64,000 bases of DNA from Pirellulales bacterium (GTDB lineage: Bacteria; Planctomycetota; Planctomycetia; Pirellulales; JALHPA01). Made by a program: the position numbers and the translations under genes. The notes beneath the pieces are model-generated. The model was not told the DNA's origin. It searched no databases and saw only the letters and a program-made list of their open reading frames with translations. Of this stretch, positions 42,582-61,148 are shown piece by piece; position 1 is the stretch's first letter; the number at the start of each line of letters is the position of its first letter. The stretch is from assembly GCA_033762255.1 (NCBI GenBank), contig JANRLT010000053.1, positions 4,803 through 68,802 of the forward strand, written 5' to 3'.

Positions 42582-42977
42582 ATGGAGCAGATCCTCCCTA
42601 TTTTTTTGTTTATTGTGATTGCGGCGGGATTGGCCGTGTCCATGTTAACGGTCGGCAGTTTGGTCGGTCCCGCGCGTAACAGCCGAATGAAGGAGATGCC
42701 CTATGAAAGCGGCATGGATCCAATTCATGACACGCGGCGACGATTTGATATTCACTTTCATTTGGTGGCCATCGCGTTTTTAATTTTTGACGTGGAATTG
42801 CTCTTTTTGTATCCCTGGGCGGTAGCCAGCCGCAACCCGGCGGGAATTCCTTTGGCGGTGGAAAATGGCTGGGTCGAGAGCCGGGGGTTGGTCTTTGGCG
42901 AAGTCATGGTTTTTATTGCCTTATTAACGCTGGGATTTGTCTATGCCTGGCGCAAGGGGGTGTTCCGATGGCGCTAG
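42582..42977 (+). CDS. nuoA: NADH-quinone oxidoreductase subunit A
   Basis: 131 aa, 3 [10 protein letters not shown] and [15 protein letters not shown] motifs. Confidence 0.9.
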
Positions 42978-43534
42978 AGTTACCGGAAAATGTGGTCATT
43001 AGCAAACTAGATGCCCTGGCCAGTTGGTGTCGCAAGAACAGCCTGTGGCCGATGCCCTTTGCCACGGCCTGCTGCGGCATCGAACTGATGGCGACCGGCG
43101 CCAGCAAGCACGATTTGGCCCGGTTTGGAGCGGAGGTTTTTCGGTTTAGCCCACGCCAGTGCGATCTGATGATCGTGGCGGGAAGGGTCGTCATGAAAAT
43201 GCTGCCCGTCCTGCAGCGTATTTGGTCGCAAATGCACGAACCGAAATGGTGCATCAGCATGGGGGCCTGCGCCAGCACGGGAGGGGTGTTTGACACCTAC
43301 AGCGTAGTTCAAGGGATCGACCGTTTTTTGCCGGTCGACATGTACGTCCCCGGCTGTCCCCCCCGCCCGGAACAATTGATTCAGTCGATTATTGATTTAC
43401 AGGACAAAATCCAGCGCGAGGGGACGATTAGCGGACGGGAATTTACCACCGCCGCGCGTCAACAGCCCAAGCGGGCACTGGTTGAGGTGGCCGCCGCCTC
43501 GCAACTGGACAGTGCGCGGAATCCAGTTTTTTAA
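42968..43534 (+). CDS. nuoB: NADH-quinone oxidoreductase subunit B
   Basis: [38 protein letters not shown] and VPGCPPRPE (N2 cluster cysteines). Confidence 0.95.
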
Positions 43535-43647
43535 TGAGAGGCCGGTCGGGGGCAGGGCGGTTTGGGTAGAGGCGCTAGCCCGACAACGGGAAAAGTCCCG
43601 CTCCACGGAGAAGGCCGGGCTTTCCATTTAATTGTAGAACTTTTCTG

Positions 43648-44163
43648 ATGGTAAACACGATGCCTATGGCCAGTCCGGGGACGATAACCGCATTAACAGC
43701 CAAATTTCCCCTGGTGATTAAAAGCGAGTTTCGCGGCGAAACCCGGGTGGTTTTGCCCGTGGAGCAATTGCTAGAGATCATGGGTTTTTTGAAAGGGGAA
43801 TTGGGTTTTGACTATTTGGTCGACATTACTTGCGTGGATTATTTGAACTATCGCGACGCACGCGACCGCTTTGGCCTGGTGTATTTACTCAGTAATATTA
43901 GCGCCAACGAGCGATTAACGGCGCGGGTGTACCTGAACGAGCCAAATTTGACCGTCCCCAGCGTGGTGCCATTGTGGGAGGGGGCGAATTGGCTGGAACG
44001 AGAAGTTTATGACATGTTCGGGATTGTGTTTGACGGGCATCCGGACTTGCGGCGGATTCTTTGTCCCGAGGAGTTCACGGCCTACCCCCTGAGAAAAGAT
44101 TATCCCATGCAGGGTCGCGGAGAGCGGCACAACTTTATGCGCTTGGGACGGGATGAAACCTGA
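43648..44163 (+). CDS. nuoC: NADH-quinone oxidoreductase subunit C
   Basis: [24 protein letters not shown] and YPLRKDYP. Confidence 0.9.
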
Positions 44164-44200
44164 GGGGAATGCAGAAGTAAAAATGCAGAATGCAGAATTT
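44164..44200. repeat. Left inverted-repeat arm flanking the four-helix-bundle cassette (AATGCAGAA x3)
   Basis: GGGGAATGCAGAAGTAAAAATGCAGAATGCAGAATTT starts 1 nt after the nuoC stop. Confidence 0.8.
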
Positions 44201-44231
44201 TTGAAGCAGACTTATTTCCAGTTTTAGATTC

Positions 44232-44612
44232 ATGCGAGCAACAATCATGCAAAAATCGACTCAAAACCATGATTTGCAAGTCCGCACCAAGCACTTGGCT
44301 TTGCGGATTATGACGCTATATACCGCACTTCCTAAAACCACGATCGCTGATGTGTTAGGCAAGCAAGTTTTACGCAGCGGCACATCCGTGGGCGCGCAAT
44401 TTCGCGAGGCGTGCCGCGCTCGCAGTCGGGCGGAATTTGTAAGCAAGCTTAATAGCTCTCTGCAGGAATTGGATGAAACCGGATATTGGTTGGAATTGTT
44501 AGTGGAGGGCAAAATTGTCAAAGAAACGAAATTGTCCTTATTGATTCAAGAAGTGGAGGAATTGACCGCCATCTTTGTGAAATCGATAAAAACCGCGAAA
44601 TACACCAGTTAA
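44232..44612 (+). CDS. Four-helix-bundle protein (23S rRNA intervening-sequence protein / Avd-like family) inserted between nuoC and nuoD
   Basis: LQVRTKHLALRIMTLYTALPKTTIADVLGKQVLRSGTSVGAQFREACRARSRAEFVSKLNSSLQELDETGYWLELL matches the family pattern (Q..RsatSi.aN..EA..a.S..dF..Kl.i...E..Et.yWL.ll). The start may be ATG 44247. Confidence 0.75.
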   Translation: MRATIMQKSTQNHDLQVRTKHLALRIMTLYTALPKTTIADVLGKQVLRSGTSVGAQFREACRARSRAEFVSKLNSSLQELDETGYWLELLVEGKIVKETKLSLLIQEVEELTAIFVKSIKTAKYTS

Positions 44613-44635
44613 GTTACCTTTACTTGTATTTCTTC

Positions 44636-44674
44636 GCCATTCTGCATTCATCATTCATCATTCTGCATTTGCCC
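44636..44674. repeat. Right inverted-repeat arm (TTCTGCATT x2 ... GCCCC)
   Basis: GCCATTCTGCATTCATCATTCATCATTCTGCATTTGCCCC has the reverse complement GGGGCAAATGCAGAATGATGAATGATGAATGCAGAATGGC. It ends 2 nt before the nuoD ATG. Confidence 0.8.
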
Positions 44675-44675
44675 C

Positions 44676-45905
44676 ATGCCTTCCCTTGCCACGCCTCCCG
44701 CGACCCAAAACCTGGCCCATGACGAGCCGGTGGATTATTTGTGGACCTTGAATTTTGGGCCACAGCATCCGGCGACGCATACCACGTTGCGATTGGTCAT
44801 CAAGCTGGATGGCGAGCGCGTGGTGGACGCCATGCCGGATATCGGCTATTTGCATTCCGGGTTTGAAAAGATTGGCGAGCACCTGGACTACAATCAGTAT
44901 GTGACCATCACCGATCGGATGAATTACATTTCACCGGTGGCGAATGGAATCGCGTGGCATAGCGCGGTCGAAAAACTGCTGGGAATCGAGATCACCCCCC
45001 GCTGCCGCTACATTCGCACGATTCTGGCGGAATTGGCGCGGATCAGCGATCATTTGCTATGCAACGGCGCGGTGGGGTTGGACACGGGGGCGTTCACGTT
45101 TTTCTTGTACGCGTTTAACCAACGCGAAGTGATCTACGATATCCAGGAAACGCTCTCCGGCCAACGTTTTCATCCCAGTTACACCCGGGTGGGTGGTTTG
45201 ATGTACGATATGACCCCCCTGGTTGTGGAAAAAATTCGCAAGTTTTGCCGCGAGTTTCCCAAAACCCTGGAGGACATGGAAAAGCTGCTCAATCGCAACA
45301 AGATTTTTCATGATCGCACGCGCGGCGTGGGCGTGCTGACCAAGGAGCAGGCGATTAATCGCAGCGCCAGCGGACCAATCGCGCGGGCCAGCGGCGTGAC
45401 CCGGGACCTGCGCAAGGACGAACCGTATTTGGCGTATCCGGATTTTGATTTTAAAATATGCTGCGCGACGGCGGGGGACTGCTTTAGCCGCTACTTGGTT
45501 CGGATGGCCGAGATGCGGGAGAGCCTGCGGATTATCAAAGCCGCCATTGAAAATATTCCCCCCGGCCCCCACAGCGTGGCCCCGGGCGAACGCACGACTT
45601 TACCCGAGAAACGCATGGTGTACTCCACCATCGAGGGGACGATCTCGCATTTTGAGTTGGTCATGAGCAACCGCGGCTTTGAAGTTCCGCGGGAGGAAGT
45701 TTACGCGGCCAACGAGACGGCGAACGGCGAATTGGGCTTTTATATCTCAGGGGACGGTACCGATGTCGCCTACCGGGCGCGCACCCGACCCCCCAGCTAC
45801 ATCCACTTTGCCATGTTTCCCCATTTGATCCGGGGTCATACGTTGTCCGACATCGTGGCGGTGCTGGGCAGTTTGAACATCATCGCGGCGGAACTGGATC
45901 GGTAG
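44676..45905 (+). CDS. nuoD: NADH-quinone oxidoreductase subunit D
   Basis: LNFGPQHPATHTTLRL, IGYLHSGFEKIGE and a C-terminal IIAAELDR. Confidence 0.95.
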   Translation: MPSLATPPATQNLAHDEPVDYLWTLNFGPQHPATHTTLRLVIKLDGERVVDAMPDIGYLHSGFEKIGEHLDYNQYVTITDRMNYISPVANGIAWHSAVEKLLGIEITPRCRYIRTILAELARISDHLLCNGAVGLDTGAFTFFLYAFNQREVIYDIQETLSGQRFHPSYTRVGGLMYDMTPLVVEKIRKFCREFPKTLEDMEKLLNRNKIFHDRTRGVGVLTKEQAINRSASGPIARASGVTRDLRKDEPYLAYPDFDFKICCATAGDCFSRYLVRMAEMRESLRIIKAAIENIPPGPHSVAPGERTTLPEKRMVYSTIEGTISHFELVMSNRGFEVPREEVYAANETANGELGFYISGDGTDVAYRARTRPPSYIHFAMFPHLIRGHTLSDIVAVLGSLNIIAAELDR

Positions 45906-45911
45906 TATATC

Positions 45912-46094
45912 ATGGTCAAAATTGAAGGCAGTTCGCCGCTTGAAAAATTTGAAAAACGATTCTTCAAAAATGAATCGCATCATGTTGTGTTTAGTTTGTA
46001 CGCAAGAAGCATTCAATCAACGGACATATTAGAATTCTGTCAAGACTATGTGGAGTGTGTTGATTACTGGAGAGAAGGATTGTGTCAAGTTTAG
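45912..46094 (+). CDS. Small AT-rich ORF of unknown function (doubtful)
   Basis: 60-aa ORF beginning 7 nt after the nuoD stop. No motif recognised. It is listed only because it sits in the inserted nuoD-nuoE segment. Confidence 0.2.
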   Translation: MVKIEGSSPLEKFEKRFFKNESHHVVFSLYARSIQSTDILEFCQDYVECVDYWREGLCQV

Positions 46095-46146
46095 CCAAAA
46101 GTGAGTGCCAGTTCACAATAACAGATTGTTAGCCGAGTTCGCGCGT

Positions 46147-46668
46147 ATGAAGATTTGCACGCTTACATCGACACTACTGATTATGGGATTCCTCAGCTTG
46201 CTCGGTTGCTCGAAACTCAACGACGCGCCGCAGGAACAGCAGAAGGTGTCGGCATTGTCACAGGCAGACGTTGAGCGCCTCGACAAGCAGCGAGCCATCA
46301 TCACGCAATTTGTGGCGGACGAGGATTCGAGAGCCAAATATCAGAAGGTCGCAGGCAAGCTCGGCACTTTACAAGCGATTCTCAACCAGAAGGAGTTCCA
46401 GCCGTCACAAACCTACGAGCTTCAGTGTATGGGCGCAGTTCTCGGAGACGCATTTGTTCAGGAGATGGGGATGGAGTGGGTCATGGTCGAGGACGAGCAT
46501 GGCACTGACCCAGCAGTGCGATTGCCAGGCACGACCATTATCATTTTCCCGCTCACGATGATTTCCAAGCGAGTCGAGCGGGGCGAGACTTTTGACGTTT
46601 TCGACCTATTCAACGGAATTGCAGACAAGATTGATCAGCTCAAGAAGACAGCAGATAAAACAAAATGA
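46147..46668 (+). CDS. Putative lipoprotein of unknown function inserted between nuoD and nuoE
   Basis: MKICTLTSTLLIMGFLSLLGCSKL is a signal peptide with a lipobox (LLGC). About 150 aa of soluble domain follow (possibly DUF3806-like, from memory only). The track ORF starts at 46105. Confidence 0.55.
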   Translation: MKICTLTSTLLIMGFLSLLGCSKLNDAPQEQQKVSALSQADVERLDKQRAIITQFVADEDSRAKYQKVAGKLGTLQAILNQKEFQPSQTYELQCMGAVLGDAFVQEMGMEWVMVEDEHGTDPAVRLPGTTIIIFPLTMISKRVERGETFDVFDLFNGIADKIDQLKKTADKTK

Positions 46669-46910
46669 AGGAGTAGGCTAACAAGGGCGCTGCAGCGATC
46701 CGCCACCCCGCTGCGCAGGCGGGCGGTTAAGATAATTTGGCCGTGCGTGTTGCAGCCGACCGGGCGTTTCCAGCGGCGGTCACTGAGCTTGGGCGTTGAT
46801 TGTGAGTACCTACCTTATTGAGTGTGAAAACCTACATGAAAAAAATGAGATAAATTTTGCCGTCGCATTTTGCTTTCGATCTATTACTTGCTGAATTAGA
46901 GTTCCGATTT

Positions 46911-47429
46911 ATGTCGAACACAGACTTTCAACTCCTCACCCCCGACATGGTCGCCGCCATCACGGCCTTGTTTCCGCGCTATCCCAACAAACGCGCGGTC
47001 ACGCTGCCGGCCATCCATATCGTCAACGACCAGCTCCGCTACGTCCCCCCCCGCGCCGTGGTCGAGATCGCCCAGGTGCTGGAACTCGCCCCCGCCGAAG
47101 TCCAGGACACCCTCTCCTTTTACGGCATCTTCAAGCAGGACCAGCCCCACGGACTGACCCGCGCGTGGGTGTGTCGCTCGGTCAGTTGCATGCTGCGCGG
47201 CGGCTACGACATCCTCGACCATTTGTGCCACCGCGCGGGCGTTCACCCCGGAGAATGCACACCCGATGGCAAACTGACCGTCGAATTCTCCGAATGCCTG
47301 GGCGCTTGTGAATACGCTCCCTGCATGCTTGCTAACCAAGACTTGCACAAGGATGTCACCCCCGAAAAAATCGACAGCTTTTTGGACCAACTTGGTGTTG
47401 CCGCCCAGCCGCCAGCCGCACACGCCTAA
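46911..47429 (+). CDS. nuoE: NADH-quinone oxidoreductase subunit E
   Basis: LPAIHIVNDQLRYVP and the CRSVSC...C...ECLGACEYAPCM 2Fe-2S cysteines. ATG 46911 (MSNTDF) is preferred over the track TTG at 46857. Confidence 0.9.
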   Translation: MSNTDFQLLTPDMVAAITALFPRYPNKRAVTLPAIHIVNDQLRYVPPRAVVEIAQVLELAPAEVQDTLSFYGIFKQDQPHGLTRAWVCRSVSCMLRGGYDILDHLCHRAGVHPGECTPDGKLTVEFSECLGACEYAPCMLANQDLHKDVTPEKIDSFLDQLGVAAQPPAAHA

Positions 47430-47475
47430 GTTCACGTACAACTAATGCCATTCCATACCATTATTAATCCGTCTT

Positions 47476-48825
47476 ATGCCAAAATTTGAACCAGTTCTCA
47501 TGGCCAATATGGGCCTACCCGATAGCCACACGCTGGCGGTGTATGAGTCCCGCGGCGGGTACGGGGCCTTGCGCAAGGCCATCCAGGAATTATCTCCTGA
47601 ACAAGTGGTGGAAACCGTCAAAGCCAGCGGCCTGCGCGGGCGGGGCGGAGCGGGATTTCCCACCGGACTTAAATGGACCTTTTTGCCCAAGAATCACCCC
47701 GGGCCGATCTATTTATTGATCAATGCCGATGAAAGCGAGCCGGGGACGTTTAATAATCGGTATTTGATGGAACTTGACCCGCATCAGGTGATCGAGGGAA
47801 CAATCCTCAGTTGCTACGCGACAAAGGCCACAACCGCCTACATTTACTTGCGGTACGAGTATCCGCTTTGTTGGCAGCGGCTGCAAAGCGCGCTGGATGA
47901 ATGCTACGCCAAGGGGTATCTGGGCAAGAACATCCTGGGGAGCGAATTCTCGCTGGATATTTATTTGCACAAGGGGGCGGGTGCCTACATCTGTGGCGAG
48001 GAGACGGGGTTGATTGAATCGCTCGAGGGAAAACGGGCGTGGCCACGAATCAAGCCCCCATTTCCCGCGATCGAGGGGGTCTTTCGCAAACCGACGGTCG
48101 TTAATAATGTCGAAACCGTCGCTTGCGTTACACACATTATCAATCGCGGGGTGGACTGGTTTAAATCGATCGGTGTGCCCGCCAATCCTAATGTTAAAAA
48201 CGACGCCGGCAGCTATGGACCAAAGCTGTATTGCCTGAGCGGACATATTAATAAACCCGGCTGTTACGAAGCCCCGCTGGGAATCACCTGCCGCGAACTG
48301 ATTGACGAATATGGCGGCGGCATCTGGAAAGGACGCAAGGGCAAGGCCGCCATTCCCGGCGGAATCAGTATGGGCATCCTCAGCGAGCCGGAATTTGACA
48401 CCCCGCTCGACTTTGGCTCCTTGGGTAAGGTGGGCTGCCTGGGCCTGGGGACCGCCGCTGTGGTCGTCATGGATGAAACCACGTCGATGGTGGACTTTTT
48501 GCACAATAGCTGCCAGTTTTTTAAACACGAAAGTTGCGGCCAATGCACTCCCTGTCGCGAGGGGACCGCCTGGGGGATGGGCATGCTGTCGCGGATCAAA
48601 GCGGGCCAGGGACGACTGCGGGATTTGGATTTGCTACTGGAAATTGGCGACACCATTGGCATCACACACGGAACAACGATTTGCGGATTGTCGGACGGGG
48701 CGGCCTGGCCGATTAAAAACGCGATTCGCAAATTCAAAGGAGAGTTCGAGGATTACATCAAACGCACCAACCCCCGTGGTTACGCCGAGACCCAGCCCGT
48801 GCCAGCCCTCGCGCTGGCGCATTAG
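47476..48825 (+). CDS. nuoF: NADH-quinone oxidoreductase subunit F
   Basis: GLRGRGGAGFPTGLKW, YLLINADESEPGTF, GAGAYICGEETGLIESLEG and ESCGQCTPCREG. Confidence 0.95.
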   Translation: MPKFEPVLMANMGLPDSHTLAVYESRGGYGALRKAIQELSPEQVVETVKASGLRGRGGAGFPTGLKWTFLPKNHPGPIYLLINADESEPGTFNNRYLMELDPHQVIEGTILSCYATKATTAYIYLRYEYPLCWQRLQSALDECYAKGYLGKNILGSEFSLDIYLHKGAGAYICGEETGLIESLEGKRAWPRIKPPFPAIEGVFRKPTVVNNVETVACVTHIINRGVDWFKSIGVPANPNVKNDAGSYGPKLYCLSGHINKPGCYEAPLGITCRELIDEYGGGIWKGRKGKAAIPGGISMGILSEPEFDTPLDFGSLGKVGCLGLGTAAVVVMDETTSMVDFLHNSCQFFKHESCGQCTPCREGTAWGMGMLSRIKAGQGRLRDLDLLLEIGDTIGITHGTTICGLSDGAAWPIKNAIRKFKGEFEDYIKRTNPRGYAETQPVPALALAH

Positions 48826-48860
48826 TAAGTTAAAGATTAATTATTTGTTAGGGATGATTC

Positions 48861-49529
48861 ATGTCTGTCACATTGACAAATCGATTGAACTTGGCCACCA
48901 CCGACACAATATTACGTGAGTTAACCACCATGACACGTGATATTGTATCTGGCGGTGATCCTACCCTGACCGCATTTCGTGAGCAAGCGGAGGTGTTGGG
49001 CGCGAATCCGGTCATCGTGGGCGGAGTGGCCGTGATTCATCATGGCTACCGGCGCACAACAGAAGACAGGGATGTTTTGTTGCTTCATCGAGAGGCAGAG
49101 GCCTTGGCTAATCACCTGATGGATGCACCTAATTGGGAAAGAGTGGAAATACGGCAATACGCATTTCTTTATCATCCCACGGGAATTCATGTGGATTTTT
49201 TAGTTTCCGGACACTTGATGCAGCTAGGCCGTCCCTATTTTTTTCCTGGTACGCATCAAATCGATGTTTCCGGTGAGGTTGCGGGGATTCCGGTGATTGG
49301 ATTACAGGATTTGATTTGGCTCAAGCTGGTGGCGGGTAGAATGCAAGATTTGGCTGATATTATGGAACTTTGCAAACGTCATTTACCCAACATCGACATA
49401 GCACGTATCCTGCAGTACTTGCAAAAGGAAGACGATGATTTACGTGAGAAATTGCTTGATATTATCAATCGAGTGCCGATAGAACTGGCGGGGGAAAAAC
49501 GTCTGGGACAAGATCATCCCGAAAGCTGA
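48861..49529 (+). CDS. Minimal nucleotidyltransferase-fold protein (DUF2204/AbiEii-like) inserted between nuoF and nuoG
   Basis: VIVGGVAVIHHGYRRTTEDRDVLL contains G[GS]...DxD, the NTase core. LIWLKLVAGRMQDLADIMEL is the GR.xD..D motif seen in this group. The gene is AT-richer than the flanking nuo genes. Confidence 0.55.
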   Translation: MSVTLTNRLNLATTDTILRELTTMTRDIVSGGDPTLTAFREQAEVLGANPVIVGGVAVIHHGYRRTTEDRDVLLLHREAEALANHLMDAPNWERVEIRQYAFLYHPTGIHVDFLVSGHLMQLGRPYFFPGTHQIDVSGEVAGIPVIGLQDLIWLKLVAGRMQDLADIMELCKRHLPNIDIARILQYLQKEDDDLREKLLDIINRVPIELAGEKRLGQDHPES

Positions 49530-49593
49530 TGTATCTCCAGTTCTTACCATCGCCTAATTTGCTTCTTACTTCACCAATACTCAACAGCTATTT

Positions 49594-51249
49594 ATGGGTA
49601 CGATCCTCATCGACAATATCGAAGTTCCCGTCGCCGACCATGAGCGGCTGAATGGCATTCAGGCCGCCGCCCGCGCGGGGGTGGAGATACCGCATTATTG
49701 CTGGCATCCCGGCCTGTCCGTGGTGGCTAGTTGCCGCATGTGCCTGGTCGAGACCGGCGCAAAGGACCCCGCCACCGGCAAGATCACCATGCTGCCGCGC
49801 GTCGTCCCCGCCTGCCAAACACCGGCCAAGGATGGCACGGTCTTTATCACCAATAGCGACAAGGTGAAGCAGTACCGCGCTATGGTCGAAGAAGACCTGC
49901 TCATCGACCATCCCATCGACTGCCCCATTTGCGACAAGGCCGGCGAGTGCCTGCTGCAAGATTATTATTTTGCGCATGGCCAGCCCGAACGTCGTGCGGA
50001 CCTCCGCCCCTTTACCAGCCGCCGCAAGGAAATGGGGGACACGGTGACCCTGTTTATCGACCGTTGCGTCATGTGCACGCGGTGCGTGCGCTTTACCCGC
50101 GAAGTCAGCGGCACCAGCGAACTGATGGTTATCAACCGCGGCAGCCACGAGGAAATCGACGTCTTTGACGGTTTCCCCTTGGATAACAAATTGTCGGGAA
50201 ATGTGGTCGACCTGTGCCCCGTTGGGGCCTTGGGTGACCGGGACTTTTTGTACAAGCAGCGCGTCTGGTTCATGAAAAAGCACAACGGCGTCTGCGCTAC
50301 CTGCGCCACCGGCTGTTCCATTACTATCGAGGAAAACCAGGATTCCGTCTTTCGGCTAAAGCCGCGCGAAAATCTGGAAATCAATAAATGGTGGATGTGC
50401 GACGAGGGTCGTTACAATTATGGTTACATCCACCAACCGGACCGCTTGAATGGACCGAAACGCCGCAAGGAAAAAGGGTACAACGCCCAGGATCTATTAA
50501 ATATCGAATGGTCCGACGTGCCGCGCATGGTCACCGCCGACATCCGGGCGGAGTTAGCCGGCGGAGGACGCCTGGCAATGGTCATTTCCCCCTTTCAAAC
50601 AGTGGAAGAAGCCTACCTGCTGTGCCAACTGGCCCGGTCCTTCGATCCGCAGGCCATCTTGGCCCTGGGCCCGGTTCCGGTTGTCGGCCAGGATGAAACT
50701 TTCCCCGGCGGGTTCACCATCCGGGCCGAAAAATGCCCCAATCGCCGCGGGGTAGAGGCGGTCCTGGCCCATTACGGCCCCATTTTGCCCTGGAACGACT
50801 TTTTGACCAAAATTCGCGGCGCCGCCAACGGCGAATCCTTGCGGGTGCTCTGGGTGGCTGGCGGATACCAACACCCGTGGATTGATGCCACGACGGCAGG
50901 GGCCTTTGCCCAGACTCCTTTGGTGATCACGCAGGATTTATTTGAATCTCCGCTGTCGGCCTATACGACTTACCAGCTTCCCGGCGGCGGTTATGCCGAA
51001 CGGGCGGGTTCCTACGTCAATTACAACCAGCGCTTGCAGTCCTTTTCCTGGGCGGTGCGCCCGCCAGCGGGCTGCAAGGTCGAAGGGCACGTCGCCTGGA
51101 GCCTGTTGGGTCGACAGGGGCTGTACAATGCGGGGGCCATTTTGCAAGAATTAGCGGCGGAGATTCCCGCGTTTAGCGCGGTGACGGGCCTGAACCCCAT
51201 TCCGCCGCAGGGGGTTGATTTACGAGTCAACCAATTGGCCGCGGTATAA
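49594..51249 (+). CDS. nuoG: NADH-quinone oxidoreductase subunit G (short form)
   Basis: N-terminal 2Fe-2S/4Fe-4S cysteines (CWHPGLSVVASCRMCLVE; HPIDCPICDKAGECLLQD; CVMCTRCVRF; CPVGAL) and a molybdopterin-like domain (CATCATGCS). Confidence 0.9.
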   Translation: MGTILIDNIEVPVADHERLNGIQAAARAGVEIPHYCWHPGLSVVASCRMCLVETGAKDPATGKITMLPRVVPACQTPAKDGTVFITNSDKVKQYRAMVEEDLLIDHPIDCPICDKAGECLLQDYYFAHGQPERRADLRPFTSRRKEMGDTVTLFIDRCVMCTRCVRFTREVSGTSELMVINRGSHEEIDVFDGFPLDNKLSGNVVDLCPVGALGDRDFLYKQRVWFMKKHNGVCATCATGCSITIEENQDSVFRLKPRENLEINKWWMCDEGRYNYGYIHQPDRLNGPKRRKEKGYNAQDLLNIEWSDVPRMVTADIRAELAGGGRLAMVISPFQTVEEAYLLCQLARSFDPQAILALGPVPVVGQDETFPGGFTIRAEKCPNRRGVEAVLAHYGPILPWNDFLTKIRGAANGESLRVLWVAGGYQHPWIDATTAGAFAQTPLVITQDLFESPLSAYTTYQLPGGGYAERAGSYVNYNQRLQSFSWAVRPPAGCKVEGHVAWSLLGRQGLYNAGAILQELAAEIPAFSAVTGLNPIPPQGVDLRVNQLAAV

Positions 51250-52835: not shown

Positions 52836-52841
52836 TCCTCC

Positions 52842-52876
52842 CCACTATCCACTATCCACTACCCACTATCCACCCC
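52842..52876. repeat. Heptamer microsatellite CCACTAT/CCACTAC x4 plus CCACCCC in the nuoH-nuoI spacer
   Basis: CCACTATCCACTATCCACTACCCACTATCCACCCC ends 6 nt before the nuoI ATG. Confidence 0.9.
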
Positions 52877-52882
52877 ACTCCC

Positions 52883-53436: not shown

Positions 53437-54663
53437 ATGAACGCCGCCGCCAAATTACCGCATCGCAACTTTTTATCAAATACCCCCATGTCCCTGTCCC
53501 AATTTTATCTCGGTTTGGCCGCCATGATCTTTGCCGCGGGGGGCATGTGGCTGCTGTTGCCGCGCGGTCGCAAGGGAGGCCGCTGGTTGGGGGGGCTGCT
53601 GGCCGCAGTCGCGCTGGTTTGCTTTGGCTTGTTGGGTCAGTCCCTGGGGAGTGTTTCCACCGACGTGGTGTATTTTACCACCGCCGCGGTGGCGGTGGTG
53701 GCGGCGGTTCTGGCGGTCAGCTTTCGCAGTCCCATTTACTGCGCCATTTGGTTCGCGCTGTCGCTGCTGGCCACGGCGGGACTCTTTATGCTGCAGGGGG
53801 CGCAGTTTTTGGCCGTGGCCAGTGTCGTGGTCTACGCCGGGGCGATCCTGGTGACGTTTTTGTTTGTGTTGATGTTGGCCCAACCCGAGGGGCACGCTTA
53901 TTACGACCGTGTCAGTTGGGAGGGCTTTTTCGCGGCGCTTACCGGGGCCGTACTGGTTGGCACATTAACCGTGCTCATCGTGCGGGTCTGGCATCCCCCG
54001 CGCGATGAACGGATCATGGCCGCGCTGGCGGGGGCCAATTCCCCCTTGAAACCCGACCAAATCCAACGCGCGCGGGTAATTCCGGTGGACTCCGCGACCG
54101 CCAAGATAGAGCTAGAATTGACCCCCGATACAAAAATCACCGATCCCCTGCTGGTCGAGCTGCAAAATTTATTCACCCAGAACGCCCAGCTAAAGCTAGT
54201 CGCCACCAAATTTAGCGTGACCGCCCTAACGCACACGCCCCCTCCAACTCCTCGGCATGTCAGTCCCGAGACGCCCCGCGCGGCAGATATCTTGCATCCG
54301 CAACATGTGGCTCGGCTGGGAGGTGAAATGTTTTCCCGGCATTTGATCGCGGTGGAGGTGGCGGGAACGCTGCTGTTGGTGGCCTTGGTGGGGGCGATTG
54401 CCATTTTGGCCCGCGAGCGGCGGGATTACACCGTCGCCGCGCCCCAAGACATCGTCCCGTTGGGCCAGGGACCGCGCACGCCGCCGGACACCCCCACCCC
54501 CCAATATCCCGTGACGCTGGCATCGTCGCCGACGATGCTGCCAGTGACCCCCGGCAGCGTGTCTCCAAGCAGTGCGGCGCCCGGCGCTAAGCCCGCCGGT
54601 GGCACGGTGGCCAGCTCCACCAAAACTAGCGCACCCGGCCTGGGAGGAACCCGCCATGAATGA
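53437..54663 (+). CDS. nuoJ: NADH-quinone oxidoreductase subunit J with a long internal loop and a Pro/Thr/Ser-rich C-terminal tail
   Basis: The N-terminal 170 aa look like NuoJ (SPIYCAIWFALSLLATAGLFMLQGAQFLAVASVVVYAGAILVTFLFVLML). The last TM (LIAVEVAGTLLLVALVGAIAIL) comes about 110 aa later, then a tail of about 90 aa. The start may be 53488. Confidence 0.8.
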   Translation: MNAAAKLPHRNFLSNTPMSLSQFYLGLAAMIFAAGGMWLLLPRGRKGGRWLGGLLAAVALVCFGLLGQSLGSVSTDVVYFTTAAVAVVAAVLAVSFRSPIYCAIWFALSLLATAGLFMLQGAQFLAVASVVVYAGAILVTFLFVLMLAQPEGHAYYDRVSWEGFFAALTGAVLVGTLTVLIVRVWHPPRDERIMAALAGANSPLKPDQIQRARVIPVDSATAKIELELTPDTKITDPLLVELQNLFTQNAQLKLVATKFSVTALTHTPPPTPRHVSPETPRAADILHPQHVARLGGEMFSRHLIAVEVAGTLLLVALVGAIAILARERRDYTVAAPQDIVPLGQGPRTPPDTPTPQYPVTLASSPTMLPVTPGSVSPSSAAPGAKPAGGTVASSTKTSAPGLGGTRHE

Positions 54664-55099
54664 AATCGCCTTGCTCCAAAATTCCCTGATTGTCGGGGCG
54701 TTGCTATTTTGCATTGGACTGGTCGGGTTTTTAGCCCGCCGGAACATGATCATAATGTTCATCTGCGCCGAGATGATGTTGCAGGGGGTCGCGGTCAGTT
54801 TGATTGCCTGGGGGCGCTACCACAATGATTGGGGTGGGCAAATGCTGGTGATCTTTATCCTGACGGTCGCCGCGTGCGAGGCTGGCCTGGCCCTGGCGAT
54901 AATCCTGATGTTGTTCGCCCGGACCGGGCGGCTGGACATCGCCGGTTGGAGCGAATTGCGCGAGGATTCCATTCCGGCCTACATTGACCAGGAATTGGAC
55001 GAGGATGCCACGGCCGAGGCCCGCTGGCCCAAATTGACCGTGGCGGGCGTGTTGCCCGCGCAAAATCCAGAGCAAGAAGCGCATCGGGGGCAACTGTAG
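54656..55099 (+). CDS. nuoK: NADH-quinone oxidoreductase subunit K with an acidic extension of about 45 aa
   Basis: MNEIALLQNSLIVGALLFCIGLVGFLARRNMIIMFICAEMMLQGV...FILTVAACEAGLALAIIL. The ATG overlaps the nuoJ stop (ATGAATGA). Confidence 0.9.
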   Translation: MNEIALLQNSLIVGALLFCIGLVGFLARRNMIIMFICAEMMLQGVAVSLIAWGRYHNDWGGQMLVIFILTVAACEAGLALAIILMLFARTGRLDIAGWSELREDSIPAYIDQELDEDATAEARWPKLTVAGVLPAQNPEQEAHRGQL

Positions 55100-55174: not shown

Positions 55175-57442
55175 ATGACCTTGGACCAATTATTGATCGC
55201 TGTTCCCGCCTTGCCCCTGTTGGGAGCGCTGATCGTCGTCTTGTTTGGTTGGCGGCTGGGGGAAAAAGCCCACCTGCCGATTGTGGCGGCGTTTGCCCTC
55301 TCCTTTGTTTGCAGTTTGCTGGTCCTGAACGAAGTTCGCCGCGCTTCGCTGGAAATAAAAGCGGGGCAAGTCGGTTATGAGCATGTCGTGACACTCTGGA
55401 CCTGGGCGGATATTCCCGGCGCCTATTGGCGGCCAAACATGCCTCCGGTCTCTTCCCAGCCCGCCCCTCCCGCCGATGTCCCCTTTAAAATTGACGTCAC
55501 GCTACGGGCCGATCCGTTGACGGCGATCATGCTGGCCATGGTGACGTTTATCAGCACGCTGGTGGCCGTTTATGCCAGCGGCTATATGCATGGCGATCCG
55601 GGATACTGGAGGTTTTTTGCCTATATTGGGTTATTTGTGTTCTCCATGACCATGTTGGTCAGCGTGAGTAATTTTGTGTTGTTGTTTGTGTTTTGGGAGG
55701 CGGTGGGCGCTTGTTCTTATTTGCTTATTTGTTTTTGTTACCAAAAACCCGAAGCGGCCGCCGCCGGCAAAAAAGCGTTTCTGGTCAACCGCGTCGGGGA
55801 CTTTGGCTTTGCCATCGCGCTGTTTCTGATTTGGCTGACATACGGCTCGCTGAATTATCACGACAGCGGAGAAATTGCCGGGGTCCTGGGCCAAACGCGC
55901 TTGGCCAACCCCGCCCTGTTTGCCACAGGGGGCGTCGCCGTGGCGATTTGCGCGCTCCTCATGCTGGGGGCTTGCGGCAAAAGCGCGCAGTTTCCGCTGC
56001 ATGTCTGGTTGCCGGACGCAATGGAAGGCCCCACGCCCGTGAGCGCGCTCATCCATGCCGCCACCATGGTCACCGCCGGAGTCTATATGGTGACGCGCTG
56101 TACCCCGCTATTTGTCGCGGCGGGACCGGCCCCTTTGTTCCACGTTGGCGAAGAAGCCTTTACCGCGCAAATGCTGGTCAGTGTGATTGGCGGCTGCACC
56201 GCGCTGTTGGCCGGACTCATTGCCCTGACCCAAACCGACCTCAAACGCGTCCTGGCTTATTCCACCGTCAGCCAGTTGGGCTATATGTTTCTCAGCCTGG
56301 GGACGGGGTCGCTGTTGGGCATCGTGGCGGGGATGTTTCACCTGTTTACCCACGCTTTTTTTAAGGCGCTGTTGTTCCTGGGGGCGGGAAGTGTCATGCA
56401 CGCCATGGGGGGGATCATTGACATGCGGCAGTTCTCTGGCCTGCGGCGACTCATGCCCGTCACCTGCGCCACTTTTGCCATTGGATGCCTGGCCCTGGCG
56501 GGCGTGGTTCCCCTGGCCGGTTTTTGGAGCAAGGATGAAGTCCTGGCGGCGCTGCACGAACGGGCCTACCCCCATGCCGCGCATGAAGCCGCCACACCGC
56601 ATGCCCAGGCGGCTCCCGCGACACATACTCTGGACACACCTCTCGCAACCGCATCCACCACAAAAACGTTTCACCTGGTCAAGCACCGCGCCGCCCAGGA
56701 GGGTACAACCGCCCCTGGCCATTCCTCCCTCACGGCGGGCGACTCAACCTCGCATGGCACACTTGCCCCGCGGTTGTATGGCACGCTCTATTGGGTGGCG
56801 CTTTTTTGTGCGGGACTTACCGCGTTTTACACGTTTCGGGCGTTTTTCATGACGTTTTATGGTCCCGAGGTCATCCCCCCCCAGGCGGGGCATCACGCCC
56901 ATGAATCCCCCCCCGTTATGACGACGCCGCTGTTGGTGTTGGCGCTTTGTTCGATGGTGGTGGGGCTGTTATTTGGCCCCAGCCACGCGTTTTTTGATTT
57001 ACTGCATCGGACCCCCTCGTTGTCGTTTGGGGCCTTTGCCGAGGTTGGCCCCCCCGGCTTTCACTGGGACATTGCCACCTGGAGCACGCTGGTGGCGCTG
57101 GCGGGCATCGGGCTGTCGGCCTATTTGTATCTGGGCGAGCGGTCGGAGGTGGCCGTGATCACCCGCGCGGTCCAGCCGCTGTATGAGCTATCTTATGGCA
57201 AGTTTTTTATCGACCAACTGTACATGGTGTTATTTGTGTTTCCCGCCACGGTGCTGGCGTTTGTCTGTTATGCCATTGACCGATGGATTATCGATGGACT
57301 GGTGAATTTTATCGGGGCGGTGCCGGCTTGGTGCGGTCAACAAATGCGCCTACTGCAAAACGGCATGGTGCAGTTTTATGCCCTGGCAATGGTGCTGGGA
57401 ACGATTGTCCTGATTTGGGGCATGGTGTTTTATGGGGTGTAA
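55175..57442 (+). CDS. nuoL: NADH-quinone oxidoreductase subunit L
   Basis: 755 aa. FFAYIGLFVFSMTMLV, GKSAQFPLHVWLPDAMEGPTPVSALIHAATMVTAGVY and QLGYMF. Confidence 0.93.
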   Translation: MTLDQLLIAVPALPLLGALIVVLFGWRLGEKAHLPIVAAFALSFVCSLLVLNEVRRASLEIKAGQVGYEHVVTLWTWADIPGAYWRPNMPPVSSQPAPPADVPFKIDVTLRADPLTAIMLAMVTFISTLVAVYASGYMHGDPGYWRFFAYIGLFVFSMTMLVSVSNFVLLFVFWEAVGACSYLLICFCYQKPEAAAAGKKAFLVNRVGDFGFAIALFLIWLTYGSLNYHDSGEIAGVLGQTRLANPALFATGGVAVAICALLMLGACGKSAQFPLHVWLPDAMEGPTPVSALIHAATMVTAGVYMVTRCTPLFVAAGPAPLFHVGEEAFTAQMLVSVIGGCTALLAGLIALTQTDLKRVLAYSTVSQLGYMFLSLGTGSLLGIVAGMFHLFTHAFFKALLFLGAGSVMHAMGGIIDMRQFSGLRRLMPVTCATFAIGCLALAGVVPLAGFWSKDEVLAALHERAYPHAAHEAATPHAQAAPATHTLDTPLATASTTKTFHLVKHRAAQEGTTAPGHSSLTAGDSTSHGTLAPRLYGTLYWVALFCAGLTAFYTFRAFFMTFYGPEVIPPQAGHHAHESPPVMTTPLLVLALCSMVVGLLFGPSHAFFDLLHRTPSLSFGAFAEVGPPGFHWDIATWSTLVALAGIGLSAYLYLGERSEVAVITRAVQPLYELSYGKFFIDQLYMVLFVFPATVLAFVCYAIDRWIIDGLVNFIGAVPAWCGQQMRLLQNGMVQFYALAMVLGTIVLIWGMVFYGV

Positions 57443-57529: not shown

Positions 57530-59455
57530 ATGGATAGCACTTCCCTGTTACTGATTTCGCTGGGCTTGCCCATGCTGGGAGCCTTGGCGATTGCCATTTC
57601 CGGCGCCGCCGCGCCCGAATGGGCCAAATGGATCGCGCTCGCCACCGCCCTGGCCACCTTGGGCGTGGCGGGAACCGTTACCTATCACGGCGCTCAAGCC
57701 GCGACACCGGACTTTGCCGTGACGCAGGTGGACTGGTTGGGAACAAATTCCCCCGTAAAAGTGCAATTTCACGTTGGTTTGGATGGCCTGGGCCTGTGGA
57801 TGTACGGCCTCTCCGCGTTATTGACCGTAACCGCGATTCTGGTCAGTTGGACGGCCATCACCGAACGGGTGGCGGGCTTTTACGCCTTGCTCATGCTTTT
57901 GGCAGCGGGAATGTTGGGCGTCTTTGCCGCCCGGGACATTTTTCTGTTTTATGTCTTCTTTGAATTCACCCTGATCCCGCTCTTTTTTCTCATTGGCATC
58001 TGGGGGAGCGAGGAGCGCCGCTACGCCGCGGTAAAATTCTTTTTGTTTACCCTGGCGGGGAGCTTGCTGACGTTTTTGTCGCTCTTGGCCATCGTGTGGT
58101 ATGCGGGACAGTTTACGCCCAACCGCGTGTTGACGTTTTCCATTCCCGAACTGACGGCGATCTTGCGCGAGCATCCCCTGCCGAACAACGCCGAAAACGG
58201 CTACTGGCAAAGCTGGATTTTCCTGGGTTTATTCGCGGGCTTTGCGATCAAGGTGCCGTTGTTTCCGTTGCACACCTGGCTGCCGCTAGCGCATGTGCAG
58301 GCCCCCACGGCCGGCTCGGTGATTTTGGCGGGCGTACTGCTCAAGATCGGCACCTACGGCTTTGTCCGTTTTAGCCTGCCTATGCTACCCCTGGCCACCG
58401 TCCACAGCATGCCCTGGATCCTGGGTCTGTCCTGCGCGGGGATTATTTACGGCGCTTTGGTGGCCCTGGCGCAAAGCGACATCAAGCGCCTAATCGCTTA
58501 TTCCAGCGTGAGCCACCTGGGCTTTTGCATGCTGGGCATTTTTGCCATTAACAAACCCGGTCTGAGTGGCGGAATCTTGCAAATGGTCAACCACGGCCTA
58601 TCAACGGGGGGACTTTTTGCCGTGGTGGGGATGATCTATGAGCGGTATCACACGCGGCAAATCAGCCAACTAGGGGGACTGGCCCGGCGGCTGCCCTGGC
58701 TAACGGTCATGATGATCCTGTTTACCTTTAGCAGTATTGGTCTGCCTGGTCTGAATGGCTTTGTGGGCGAGTTTTTAGTCTTAACGGGGATGTTCCAGCG
58801 GGGCTGGCTGGCCCCGGTTAATTGGGACCCGCTGATGATGTGGATCGCGGTGTTATCCGTCTCCGGCGTGGTGTTGGGGGCCTGGTACATGCTGTATCTG
58901 GTCGAGCGGGTCTTTTTTGGCCCGCTGCATGAACCCCAGTCCCATTCTCCGGGACACGGCCATACCATCCACGACCACGCTGGACAAGAACACGCTGGGC
59001 ACGGCCCGGGTGGACATCAATCGACGGGCCAGCATCACGCCGACCAGCGCCAGGCTAGTCATGGGCACGGATCCCCTGATCACGGACATGCCGGCGCCCA
59101 CGCTGAACACGCGGATGGGCATACCGCGGGGCATGGGCATGATTTGCCGCCCCTTCCCCCTGGCCCGGCGGATTTGAACTGGCGGGAATTTTTTGCCCTT
59201 GCGCCGTTATTGGTGTTTATTGTTTGGATTGGACTATCGCCGCAACAATTTTTGCGGCCAATCGAGCCAATCTGGGACGTGGCTGGCCAGCCAGTCTTGC
59301 AAAGTTTGGAAACTTACAAGCAACAAGCCACCGCCGCCGCACAGCCTATGTCTAATACAACAACTACCCAAGCGGACACAACTACTCCCGGGGAAAAGTC
59401 GAATGTCGACCCGTCCCCACAGGCTTTAGCCCAAATTGCCCCGGTTTCCCCGTGA
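57530..59455 (+). CDS. nuoM: NADH-quinone oxidoreductase subunit M with a His-rich insertion
   Basis: FFEFTLIPLFFLIGIWG, KVPLFPLHTWLPLAHVQAPTAGSVILAGVLLK and RLIAYSSVSHLGF. The insertion is at aa 467-537. Confidence 0.93.
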   Translation: MDSTSLLLISLGLPMLGALAIAISGAAAPEWAKWIALATALATLGVAGTVTYHGAQAATPDFAVTQVDWLGTNSPVKVQFHVGLDGLGLWMYGLSALLTVTAILVSWTAITERVAGFYALLMLLAAGMLGVFAARDIFLFYVFFEFTLIPLFFLIGIWGSEERRYAAVKFFLFTLAGSLLTFLSLLAIVWYAGQFTPNRVLTFSIPELTAILREHPLPNNAENGYWQSWIFLGLFAGFAIKVPLFPLHTWLPLAHVQAPTAGSVILAGVLLKIGTYGFVRFSLPMLPLATVHSMPWILGLSCAGIIYGALVALAQSDIKRLIAYSSVSHLGFCMLGIFAINKPGLSGGILQMVNHGLSTGGLFAVVGMIYERYHTRQISQLGGLARRLPWLTVMMILFTFSSIGLPGLNGFVGEFLVLTGMFQRGWLAPVNWDPLMMWIAVLSVSGVVLGAWYMLYLVERVFFGPLHEPQSHSPGHGHTIHDHAGQEHAGHGPGGHQSTGQHHADQRQASHGHGSPDHGHAGAHAEHADGHTAGHGHDLPPLPPGPADLNWREFFALAPLLVFIVWIGLSPQQFLRPIEPIWDVAGQPVLQSLETYKQQATAAAQPMSNTTTTQADTTTPGEKSNVDPSPQALAQIAPVSP

Positions 59456-59516
59456 TGCCGCCTTTGCCAGTAGCTCTCTATAGCAAATTATCGCCTTTTT
59501 TGACCGCTAAATATCC

Positions 59517-61148
59517 ATGACTTCCGTCGATACTGTATTACTGCTTTTGCCCGAGATCACGCTCATGGCCGCGGCCACGCTGTTCTACCTCCTCGGGGCG
59601 TTTTTGCCGGGAAAAGCCCAACCCACGCTGCTGGCGCTGTTAACGCTGGGCGTGGTCTTTGTCATGCTGGGGATCCAGGATAGCACGCGCGGCCTGGGGC
59701 CGGACTTTACCCCAGCGGCCAATGGCCCCTTGGCGGTTGATTACCTGGGCCACGCCGCGCGGTGGTTGATACTGGTCAGTGGCGCGCTGTTGGTGCTGCT
59801 TACCCGGCGTCCCGATGGCGATGCCCTGCGCGAGGAATTCACCGGCACGCTACTGCTGCTTATCGCGGGGCTAATGTTATGCGCCACGGCGAATGAAATG
59901 GTGCTGATCTTTATCGCGCTGGAACTCATCTCCATTCCCACGTATGTGCTGCTGTACCTGGGCAAACGCGGACCCGCCAGCCAAGAGGCAACCACCAAGT
60001 ACTTTTTTCTCAGTATTTTGTCCTCGATTTTTTTCCTCTATGGGCTGAGCTTTTTGTATGGCGTGGGGGGTTCGACAAACCTGGCCGACCTGGCGGCGCG
60101 GATGGCCGCCACTCCAGGACTGGATTCCTTTGCCGGATTGGGCCTGCTCTTTGTCACCGCCGGGTTGGGATTTCGGCTGACGGCGGTGCCTTTTCATTTT
60201 TATGCCCCGGATGTTTACCAGGGAACCAGCCATGCCAACGCCGGGCTATTGTCCACCATGCCCAAGATCGCGGGAGTGTTGGTCTTGGCCCGGATCGTGG
60301 CGGTCAACCTGCCAAATGTTGAAGTGCTGGGACTGGCGTGGAAAGTGCTGTTGGCGGTCTCGCTGGTGACGATGACCTTGGGCAATATCCTGGCCCTATG
60401 GCAAAACAACTTGCGACGACTATTGGCGTATTCGTCGATCGCGCATGGGGGGTATCTGTTAATTGGCTTGGCGGTGGCTTTGTACCAGGGAGCCGCTTGG
60501 CAAAGCGGCTCAACCAGCGACGGTCCAATTAGCGGCATCGGCGGGGCTTTGTTTTATGTTTTGGTCTATACGTTTGGCACCCTGGGCACCTTTGCCGTGT
60601 TGGCCGCGCTGGGGACGGAGGATCACCCCGTCGAGACCGTGGACGATTTGGCGGGGCTGGGCCAGACCCACCCCCTGGCCGCGCTCGCGCTGGCGATCTT
60701 TATGTTTAGCCTCGCGGGGATTCCCCCTTTGGCCGGTTTTTGGGGGAAATTTACGCTCTTTGCCGGGGCCGTCCAGTCCAGTGGCGTGGCCAGCGCCGAG
60801 GCCGCCGGCACACCGGGTTGGAACACGTGGTTTCTTGTCCTGGCCATTGTGGGCGTGCTGAATGCCGCCATCGCCGCCGCATATTACCTGCGAATCATTG
60901 CCGTGGTCTATTTTCAACCCCACACCCAACGCTGGCCCGCCAACGCCAATCCCGGCCCCGCGCTGGCCGCTGCCATGTGCGCTGGCCTGGTGCTGGTCGG
61001 GGGAATTTTTGCCGGTCCCATGCTAGCCAATACCCAGGCCGCCGGTCAAAATGTCTATCGGGGAGAACGCCCCCAGGTGAATGCCGCCCAAGTACCAACA
61101 GAGGCGTCCCCCGCGGCGCGGATTCCACAGCTAGCAAGGCATGATTGA
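59517..61148 (+). CDS. nuoN: NADH-quinone oxidoreductase subunit N
   Basis: ALELISIPTYVLL, AVPFHFYAPDVYQG and RLLAYSSIAHGGY. Confidence 0.92.
   Translation: MTSVDTVLLLLPEITLMAAATLFYLLGAFLPGKAQPTLLALLTLGVVFVMLGIQDSTRGLGPDFTPAANGPLAVDYLGHAARWLILVSGALLVLLTRRPDGDALREEFTGTLLLLIAGLMLCATANEMVLIFIALELISIPTYVLLYLGKRGPASQEATTKYFFLSILSSIFFLYGLSFLYGVGGSTNLADLAARMAATPGLDSFAGLGLLFVTAGLGFRLTAVPFHFYAPDVYQGTSHANAGLLSTMPKIAGVLVLARIVAVNLPNVEVLGLAWKVLLAVSLVTMTLGNILALWQNNLRRLLAYSSIAHGGYLLIGLAVALYQGAAWQSGSTSDGPISGIGGALFYVLVYTFGTLGTFAVLAALGTEDHPVETVDDLAGLGQTHPLAALALAIFMFSLAGIPPLAGFWGKFTLFAGAVQSSGVASAEAAGTPGWNTWFLVLAIVGVLNAAIAAAYYLRIIAVVYFQPHTQRWPANANPGPALAAAMCAGLVLVGGIFAGPMLANTQAAGQNVYRGERPQVNAAQVPTEASPAARIPQLARHD

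Follow-up and report, generated by a model that had tools for sequence, protein, structure and literature searches.

We have found that the operon for respiratory complex I (nuoA to nuoN) in a Pirellulales bacterium carries extra DNA in four of its intergenic spacers. The operon lies in a 64,000-nucleotide stretch of a contig from a metagenome-assembled genome (MAG), positions 4,803 to 68,802 of JANRLT010000053.1 (assembly GCA_033762255.1). This stretch is referred to here as the window, and all coordinates are positions within it. Four pieces of DNA, unrelated to one another, probably entered these spacers at separate times and are now co-oriented within the transcription unit. The four are a cassette of the intervening sequence (IVS) type between nuoC and nuoD, a stray DUF3806 gene between nuoD and nuoE, an anciently fixed nucleotidyltransferase gene between nuoF and nuoG, and a decayed DUF433-DUF5615 module with a repeat between nuoG and nuoH. 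A mosaic of independent events of different ages is the best account of the four inserts; the mode of insertion and any physiological role are the parts of that account that we infer.

The proteins of the window were scanned with Pfam, and the NCBIfam, Rfam and PADLOC libraries were used in addition. Relatives of the operon were taken from a NuoG-seeded scan, with one genome per species, which gave 80 loci, all from Pirellulales or other Planctomycetota, the best of them at 73-75% NuoG identity. The 19 proteins of the window were mapped onto these relatives and the spacers were measured. In the window, the spacers are 512 bp between nuoC and nuoD, 1005 bp between nuoD and nuoE, 768 bp between nuoF and nuoG and 266-347 bp between nuoG and nuoH. 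Across the 80 related operons, the median spacer between nuoA and nuoI is 7.5 bp, and only 23 of 500 scored spacers reach 200 bp. Among the 47 relatives with at least seven of eight spacers scored, 34 have no spacer of at least 200 bp, 12 have one and a single operon has two. Because no relative exceeds two, the window with its four expanded spacers is a clear outlier, as an initial annotation of this DNA had surmised when it called repeated colonisation of the operon unusual. All of the inserts are on the plus strand with nuo and are unrelated to one another, and the same annotation was right to describe them as co-oriented cassettes from families typical of selfish, toxin-antitoxin (TA) or mobile contexts. 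It had also proposed that related operons be aligned, and the outcome is divided. The nuoC/nuoD cassette, the DUF3806 gene and the DUF433 gene are sporadic, with a positional counterpart in 0 of 84 related operons, whereas the nucleotidyltransferase gene is fixed in a sub-clade and is not a recent insertion.

Expanded nuo spacers in the relatives hold cargo of several other kinds. One relative (L017) has an intact DUF433 and DUF5615/PIN_10 gene pair between nuoE and nuoF (7648-8246), and another (L062) has a complete candidate anti-phage system between nuoD and nuoE (6086-7884), identified by PADLOC as HEC-01A (2e-117) and HEC-01B (2e-72) and co-oriented with nuo. A NosD-like beta-helix gene occupies the nuoD/nuoE spacer of L162 (1206-2075) and L163 (989-2143), two MAGs that also carry the nuoF/nuoG nucleotidyltransferase. 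Gene pairs without an assigned identity are found in expanded spacers of L002 and L022. In L026, a 4.4-kb block of several open reading frames (ORFs), some on the opposite strand, splits the operon between nuoF and nuoG (5549-10000), and GC-rich repeats fill expanded spacers in several relatives. Given this variety of cargo, the nuo spacers are recurrent landing places in the order. In Pirellulales, the spacers of this highly transcribed, essential operon appear to serve defence and TA genes as a safe harbour, as exemplified by HEC-01 and the DUF433-DUF5615 pair. None of the five insert ORFs of the window matched a PADLOC model.

The nuoC/nuoD insert carries a gene (44232-44612, +) for a 126-aa protein of the S23p family, also named 23S rRNA-IVS protein or four-helix-bundle protein, in agreement with the initial prediction for this spacer. 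It matches PF05635 (1e-18), TIGR02436 (5e-24, 84.6 bits against a cutoff of 24) and PDB entry 2RLD (2.6e-21), and is the only insert ORF of the window with an NCBIfam match. An imperfect inverted repeat of tandem heptamers (44161-44210 and 44633-44676) brackets the gene, with GAATGCA-type units upstream and ATTCTGC/ATTCATC units downstream. Tandem Repeats Finder (TRF) reports period 7 and 4.6 copies on both sides, at 44167-44198 and 44638-44669. The 5' arm (44164-44210) abuts the nuoC stop codon and the 3' arm (44633-44675) is complementary to it and reaches the nuoD ATG, so that the arms fill the spacer outside the ORF. The arms, of 38 nt at 76% complementarity, form a stem of about 40 bp; they pair with each other in the minimum free energy fold of the whole spacer (z=-3.0), and the stem of the arms alone has an energy of -38.9 kcal/mol (z=-5.0). 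Among the 80 related loci, just one other S23p gene occurs, in the nuoF/nuoG spacer of L011, and it has a like design with another heptamer (GTGATAA/TTATCAC). Its stem reaches -52.3 kcal/mol (z=-16), and its arms abut the flanking nuo genes exactly, as in the window. No further copy of the gene was found in the window by tblastn, nor by Pfam among four candidate ORFs of about 120 aa. Rfam detected nothing at its gathering threshold in the nuo region of the window, and nothing at E<=1 in the spacers and hairpins of 43500-53000. There is no rRNA in the window by Rfam, and the nuoC/nuoD element thus lies outside any 23S rRNA helix 25 or 45.

The closest known counterparts are the IVSs of 23S rRNA in Coxiella burnetii, Leptospira and Salmonella (PMC4990558; Ralph & McClelland 1993, cited there). 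In Coxiella, tandem heptamers (GACAGAT) occur just upstream of the S23p ORF, and the IVS is excised by RNase III, which cuts at the first repeat (PMC4990558). The window element and the rRNA IVSs share the ORF family (PF05635/TIGR02436), a sense-oriented ORF within a long stem of complementary ends, heptamers directly upstream of the ORF (three to four GACAGAT copies in Coxiella, about 4.6 GAATGCA copies in the window), a composition AT-richer than the host and a sporadic distribution. They differ in location, which in the window is the spacer of a protein-coding operon rather than helix 25 or 45 of 23S rRNA, and in consequence, as cleavage of the window element would cut an mRNA and not fragment an rRNA. 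From the heptamer-hairpin architecture and the Coxiella precedent, we regard the nuoC/nuoD insert as an IVS-type element in an mRNA context. It is hypothesized that the element is transcribed with nuo and that its heptamer stem is then cleaved, by analogy with RNase III at the 23S IVS. Such cleavage would set the S23p RNA free and leave the nuo message in two parts, divided between nuoC and nuoD.

A scan of metagenomes with the S23p proteins of the window and of L011 recovered 80 further relatives at 57-69% identity. Where the flanks were adequate for TRF, a period-7 array was found within 120 nt of the ORF on the upstream side in 52 of 75 loci, on the downstream side in 52 of 75 and on both sides in 43 of 75. 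Of the arrays near S23p ORFs, 115 have period 7, and the median is 4.3 heptamer copies per arm among the metagenome relatives. In 35 of 44 two-sided loci, the units of the two arms are exact reverse complements of each other, with 13 unit types represented, and not one of 2000 partner shuffles equalled the observed pairing. TRF period analysis and partner shuffling replaced an RNA duplex energy test for hairpins between the flanks, which was dropped since its null was inflated by the sharing of heptamer types between different loci. Local alignment of the arms suffered from the same flaw in its null, yet it revealed the heptamer pattern. In the metagenome loci, the S23p genes have a higher AT content than their neighbours in 58 of 67 cases and are co-oriented with the upstream gene in 51 of 59, an orientation taken from a crude ORF caller. 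Where checked, they lie between operon partners, namely nrdA and nrdB, metY and metA, MoxR and DUF58 genes, an ABC ATPase and its permease, argC and argB, and hemE and hemH. In the open-access literature, we found neither S23p cassettes described from the spacers of operons, nor inserts from the nuo operons of planctomycetes, nor any mention of the heptamer-hairpin signature that recurs across the S23p genes.

Paired heptamer arrays have been reported from Geobacter metallireducens, where the 2009 genome paper describes "Class 3" sites between operon genes, each a pair of arrays on opposite strands with five heptamers (MTYCTGA) per array (PMC2700814). They were interpreted there as sites for IHF/HU-type regulators, and no link to S23p was drawn (PMC2700814). 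As in the window, the pairs have about five heptamers and lie between genes of one operon (proB/proA, moaA/mosC), and their unit (e.g. ATTCTGA) is very near the ATTCTGC/ATTCATC of the window. They differ in that the arrays of a pair are about 100 bp apart and are therefore presumably without an ORF, and they look like ORF-less versions of the S23p heptamer cassette. ORF-less hairpins or arrays with heptamers of the GAATGAT/ATTCATC and GAATGAC types were also observed in related nuo operons, in the nuoH/nuoI and nuoG/nuoH spacers of L162 and L163, the nuoD/nuoE spacer of L009 and the nuoH/nuoI spacer of L003. The window itself has period-7 arrays in intergenic spacers at 2819-2917, 13205-13235, 27628-27663, 29292-29322 and 52842-52873. 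The first of these, near 2.8 kb, is about 100 nt long and lies between two co-oriented minus-strand genes, and the last, (CCACTAT)x4.6, fills the nuoH/nuoI spacer on the plus strand. All are single arms with neither an ORF nor an inverted partner, perhaps left over from heptamer-hairpin cassettes or serving them as targets. We tentatively propose, with somewhat less than even confidence, that S23p genes with inverted heptamer arrays form a widespread IVS-like class of elements. The class would prefer spacers of housekeeping operons (nuo, nrd, met, arg, hem and MoxR) besides 23S rRNA, ride the host transcript and be clipped by RNase III. The ORF-less hairpins and solo arrays (nuoH/nuoI, L162/L163, Geobacter) would be derivatives that are either decayed or similar to miniature inverted-repeat transposable elements (MITEs).

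Between nuoF and nuoG lies a gene (48861-49529, +) for a 222-aa nucleotidyltransferase of the MenT/AbiEii/DUF6036 families, matched by Pfam to DUF6036 (6e-6) and AbiEii (4e-5). A nucleotidyltransferase fold had been predicted here from the start, and it is upheld. An alignment of the family, used as a profile against the PDB, finds Mycobacterium tuberculosis MenT1 (8AN4) at 9e-7. An AlphaFold2 model (pLDDT 94) has MenT1 as its top Foldseek match, followed by ANT(2''), LnuA and TM1012, with TM-scores of 0.45-0.58. As a route to function, the fold search was set aside, since MenT1 and antibiotic nucleotidyltransferases were matched alike and at modest TM-scores. The GG...DxD motif is conserved, with G54, G62, Y63, T67 and D69 invariant and D71 present in at least 90% of sequences.

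The assumption that this gene is a recent insertion had to be abandoned. The protein, which NCBI names an AbiEii/AbiGii toxin family protein, has 49 orthologues at 43% identity or above, and in all seven contexts examined (the window, L001, L003, L161, L162, L163 and L165) the gene sits between nuoF and nuoG; remoter relatives (29-35% identity) are situated elsewhere. A neighbour-joining tree of NuoF and NuoG places all carriers in one clade. Of its 15 operons, 8 are without the gene, among them L002, the sister of the carrier L161. The simplest history is one gain and about six losses. The gene would have entered a Pirellulales sub-clade once, at its base, and then been inherited vertically with the operon under purifying selection, as indicated by a dN/dS of 0.12-0.13 where dS is unsaturated, which is similar to that of nuoG. 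The GC content at third codon positions (GC3) of the gene is 0.13-0.25 below that of nuoF and nuoG in all seven genomes. Because the low GC3 recurs in every carrier, AT-richness is not evidence of recent arrival here and reflects weak codon bias.

It could be argued that the enzyme is an active toxin of the MenT/AbiEii type, serving as an addiction or abortive-infection device within an essential operon, with its antitoxin encoded elsewhere or its control exerted through translational coupling to nuo. The MenT1 profile and fold matches, the conserved catalytic residues and the NCBI name speak for this. However, no antitoxin gene adjoins it in any of the seven contexts (in the window, the 35-nt spacer after nuoF has no ORF, and likewise in L161, L162, L163, L165, L001 and L003), TA loci are not typically inherited vertically at one site for long, the small-molecule nucleotidyltransferases ANT(2'') and LnuA match the model about as well as MenT1 does, and PADLOC does not recognise the protein. 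Identity to MenT1 is only about 17%, with a TM-score of about 0.5. We therefore consider an active toxin unlikely. The features shared with MenT/AbiEii toxins are the fold and the motif, with MenT1 as the best profile and Foldseek match; the differences are the missing neighbouring antitoxin and the fixation in a vertically inherited nuo operon. The most likely reading of the protein is that of a domesticated enzyme of the MenT/AbiEii family, dispensable and expressed with nuo on one transcript, and not that of a structural subunit.

The nuoG/nuoH insert consists of a 55-aa ORF (51320-51487, +) followed by a double-hairpin repeat (51499-51552, +) and then by nuoH, which confirms the truncated DUF433 gene and the repeat of the initial annotation. 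The ORF covers only positions 1-24 of the 56 of PF04255 (2.5e-8), no continuation of the domain was found in any other frame, and no DUF5615/PIN-like partner gene follows. Downstream of the nearest full-length relative (P0178, 94 aa) lies a DUF5615/PIN_10 gene, and from this pairing the window is read as retaining the stub of a two-gene module. The first 37 or so residues of the stub match the DUF433 N-terminus, and the intact pair is present between nuoE and nuoF of L017, whereas the window stub keeps 24 of 56 domain positions and its partner gene is gone. The insert would accordingly represent the decayed remnant of a DUF433-DUF5615 (PIN-like) module beside a dispersed repeat. The double hairpin folds at z=-2.3; it recurs at 38108-38161 with 91% identity, and variants of it occur at 38222-38305. 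No match to it was found in 177 compared loci, and it is a species-specific dispersed repeat. As a short intergenic double hairpin of about 54 nt with several copies in one genome, it resembles repetitive extragenic palindromes (REPs) and MITEs; it departs from them in lacking any match in those loci and in having no associated transposase in the window.

The nuoD/nuoE insert contains a lipoprotein gene, as had been proposed, and it belongs to DUF3806 (PF12713, 2e-28). The ORF opens with GTG at 46105, and the likely start is the ATG at 46147, giving a gene at 46147-46668 (+) with a lipobox (LLGC) that is conserved in its homologues. There are 539 homologues at 55-83% identity in several phyla, and those examined have genomic contexts unrelated to nuo; the gene is absent from every related nuo operon (84 operons). 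DNA similarity to homologous loci ends at the core of the ORF, and no mobile unit could be delimited. The AlphaFold2 model (pLDDT 88) has a single fold match, the uncharacterised BT_1490 (3HLZ). Two further parts of the cassette as initially drawn did not survive. The 60-aa ORF upstream (45912-46094, +) has no Pfam or NCBIfam match, zero homologues in 1.84 billion representative proteins and a GC3 of 0.36, and for the latter two reasons it is probably not a gene; it was rejected as unsupported and is treated as part of an AT-rich leader. The 242-bp tail (46669-46910, +), described as GC-rich and structured, folds no better than shuffled sequences (z=+0.99; palindrome z=+0.29), shows no similarity to any compared sequence and has no Rfam match, and a structured RNA or terminator was rejected. 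The insert can be pictured as a stray DUF3806 gene, horizontally acquired in this lineage only, with an AT-rich leader and a non-coding tail, and unlinked to complex I.

The initial statement that the inserts are AT-richer than the nuo genes is true of some of them. Against a GC3 of 0.63-0.77 in nuo genes, the S23p gene (0.54), the 60-aa ORF (0.36) and the nucleotidyltransferase gene (0.47) are low, but the DUF3806 gene (0.64) and the DUF433 stub (0.66) fall within the nuo range. A consensus promoter scan of the inserts gave no internal signal above shuffles and is thus uninformative on internal promoters. Since no convincing terminator was found after any insert, co-transcription of the inserts with nuo is plausible.

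Genes embedded among those of complex I might also be lineage-specific accessory factors, with products that join the enzyme, mature it or regulate it. Extra genes within complex I operons are known from the nqo clusters of Rhodothermus marinus, where non-nuo genes are likewise embedded and co-oriented; the cargo of the window differs in being four unrelated inserts, mostly of selfish or TA-type families. The shared orientation without convincing terminators, the conserved position and purifying selection of the nucleotidyltransferase gene, and the possibility that a DUF3806 lipoprotein reaches the membrane would all suit such a role. It is nevertheless quite unlikely. Three of the inserts are missing from all 84 related operons, the nucleotidyltransferase gene is confined to a single clade, where 7 of 15 operons have it, and has been lost about six times, including in L002, the DUF433 gene is a stub, DUF3806 homologues keep company unrelated to nuo, S23p relatives occupy many unrelated operons, and the nuo spacers of relatives hold defence and TA genes. 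None of the inserts passes as a component of complex I.

Two further explanations have little to commend them. Chimeric joins in a MAG contig might seem to account for the S23p and DUF3806 inserts, which occur in this assembly only, but such an artefact is very improbable, as each insert is exactly intergenic, every nuo frame is intact, the nucleotidyltransferase insert recurs in six independent assemblies, and the S23p arms border directly on the nuoC stop and the nuoD start, a precision also seen in L011. The initial Avd-like framing, in which the four-helix-bundle gene would be an accessory protein of a diversity-generating retroelement (DGR), can be given scarcely any credence even though PF05635 is the family closest to Avd (PMC10053308), because the immediate neighbours of the gene are nuoC and nuoD (no window-wide reverse transcriptase search was made), the long repeats of the window differ at every base type with none of the adenine-specific differences of template and variable repeats, and the gene has the heptamer-hairpin signature of an rRNA-IVS-type cassette instead.

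Several points weigh against separate invasions by four unrelated pieces of DNA, or against parts of that account. No transposase, target duplication or pair of filled and empty sites was found as a clue to the mechanism of insertion, and one MAG assembly is the sole source of the S23p and DUF3806 inserts. The stem of the window is imperfect at its 76% complementarity, the co-transcription and RNase III cleavage of the nuoC/nuoD element are argued by analogy, and neighbour orientation in the metagenome loci comes from crude ORF calls. The nucleotidyltransferase gene could have been inserted repeatedly at one preferred site instead of being gained once, as the neighbour-joining tree is crude and most pairs have a saturated dS. 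An intact toxin-family enzyme with no neighbouring antitoxin is also unaccounted for.

The host operon is in itself ordinary, an intact set of complex I genes in a Pirellulales MAG. As initially annotated and borne out by the ORF listing and Pfam scans, all 14 genes are present on the plus strand in canonical A-N order (42582-61148), with zero internal stops or disrupted frames. The genes are nuoA (42582-42977; PF00507, 1.7e-31), nuoB (42968-43534; PF01058, 9e-27), nuoC (43648-44163; PF00329, 6e-44), nuoD (44676-45905; PF00346, 1e-101), nuoE (46911-47429; PF01257, 1e-38), nuoF (47476-48825; PF01512, PF10589), nuoG (49594-51249; PF22117, PF10588, PF13510), nuoH (51597-52835; PF00146, 9e-105), nuoI (52883-53422; Fer4 families), nuoJ (53437-54663; PF00499, 2e-29), nuoK (54656-55099; PF00420, 1e-23), nuoL (55175-57442; PF00361, PF00662), nuoM (57530-59455; PF00361) and nuoN (59517-61148; PF00361). 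The longest ORFs of nuoE and nuoH open at TTG 46857 and GTG 51513, respectively. These N-terminal extensions are not common to relatives, in which the nuoG/nuoH gaps are negative, and the most likely starts are ATG 46911 for nuoE and ATG 51597 for nuoH; that of nuoK is most likely ATG 54656. NuoJ is unusually long at 408 aa, with a large insertion that splits the Pfam match (residues 90-323 for a 146-position model), and NuoL (755 aa) and NuoM (641 aa) are likewise long.

Elsewhere in the window, repeats of about 60-140 nt occur at 10400-13000 (10429-10567 and 12830-12968 at 92% identity, a tandem array at 11059-11322, and 11324-11386) among small, low-GC3 ORFs without a Pfam match; a DGR reading of these was rejected since their mismatches fall at all bases. 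At least three further dispersed families of GC-rich, hairpin or REP-like repeats were seen, e.g. CCCGTCCGGCGGACGGGAC and GGCGAGTTTTACTCGCC, at 15116-15154, 22490-22528, 27668-27706 and 29323-29361; at 13238-13299, 20480-20805 and 37959-37993; and at 25101-25164, 29179, 31199 and 36450. The genome is rich in small intergenic repeats. A 90-aa ORF at 16736-17008 (-) matches PF09720, "putative addiction module component" (5e-7), and is a TA-type small gene outside nuo. Directly downstream of nuoN, the gene at 61210-62901 (+) encodes an AAA-lid and HTH_8 (Fis-type) protein with a weak sigma-54-interaction match and may be a degenerate enhancer-binding protein. Two paralogues of about 510 aa (6345-7865 and 7935-9488, both -), one with a weak DUF7453 match, have a GC3 of 0.43-0.51, share internal repeats (6420-6514/8028-8122 and 7687-7754/9265-9332) and are probably foreign.

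The inserts of this nuo operon are mostly passengers, and for that reason annotation and comparative studies should not take them for new subunits. A toxin-family nucleotidyltransferase that has been kept between nuoF and nuoG across a planctomycete clade without an antitoxin is a clean candidate for a domesticated TA enzyme. The nuoC/nuoD insert ties together the intervening sequences of rRNA, the scattered "four helix bundle protein" family and the paired heptamer repeats between operon genes, three observations that had been considered apart and that fit a single picture of a hairpin-bracketed element living inside transcripts. If the proposed class is real, this insert would be a textbook member of an undescribed kind of element able to split essential operons post-transcriptionally. 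If RNase III cuts the stems, these elements would change how essential polycistronic mRNAs are processed and in what stoichiometry. The nature and spread of S23p/IVS elements, a question of long standing, also become directly testable.

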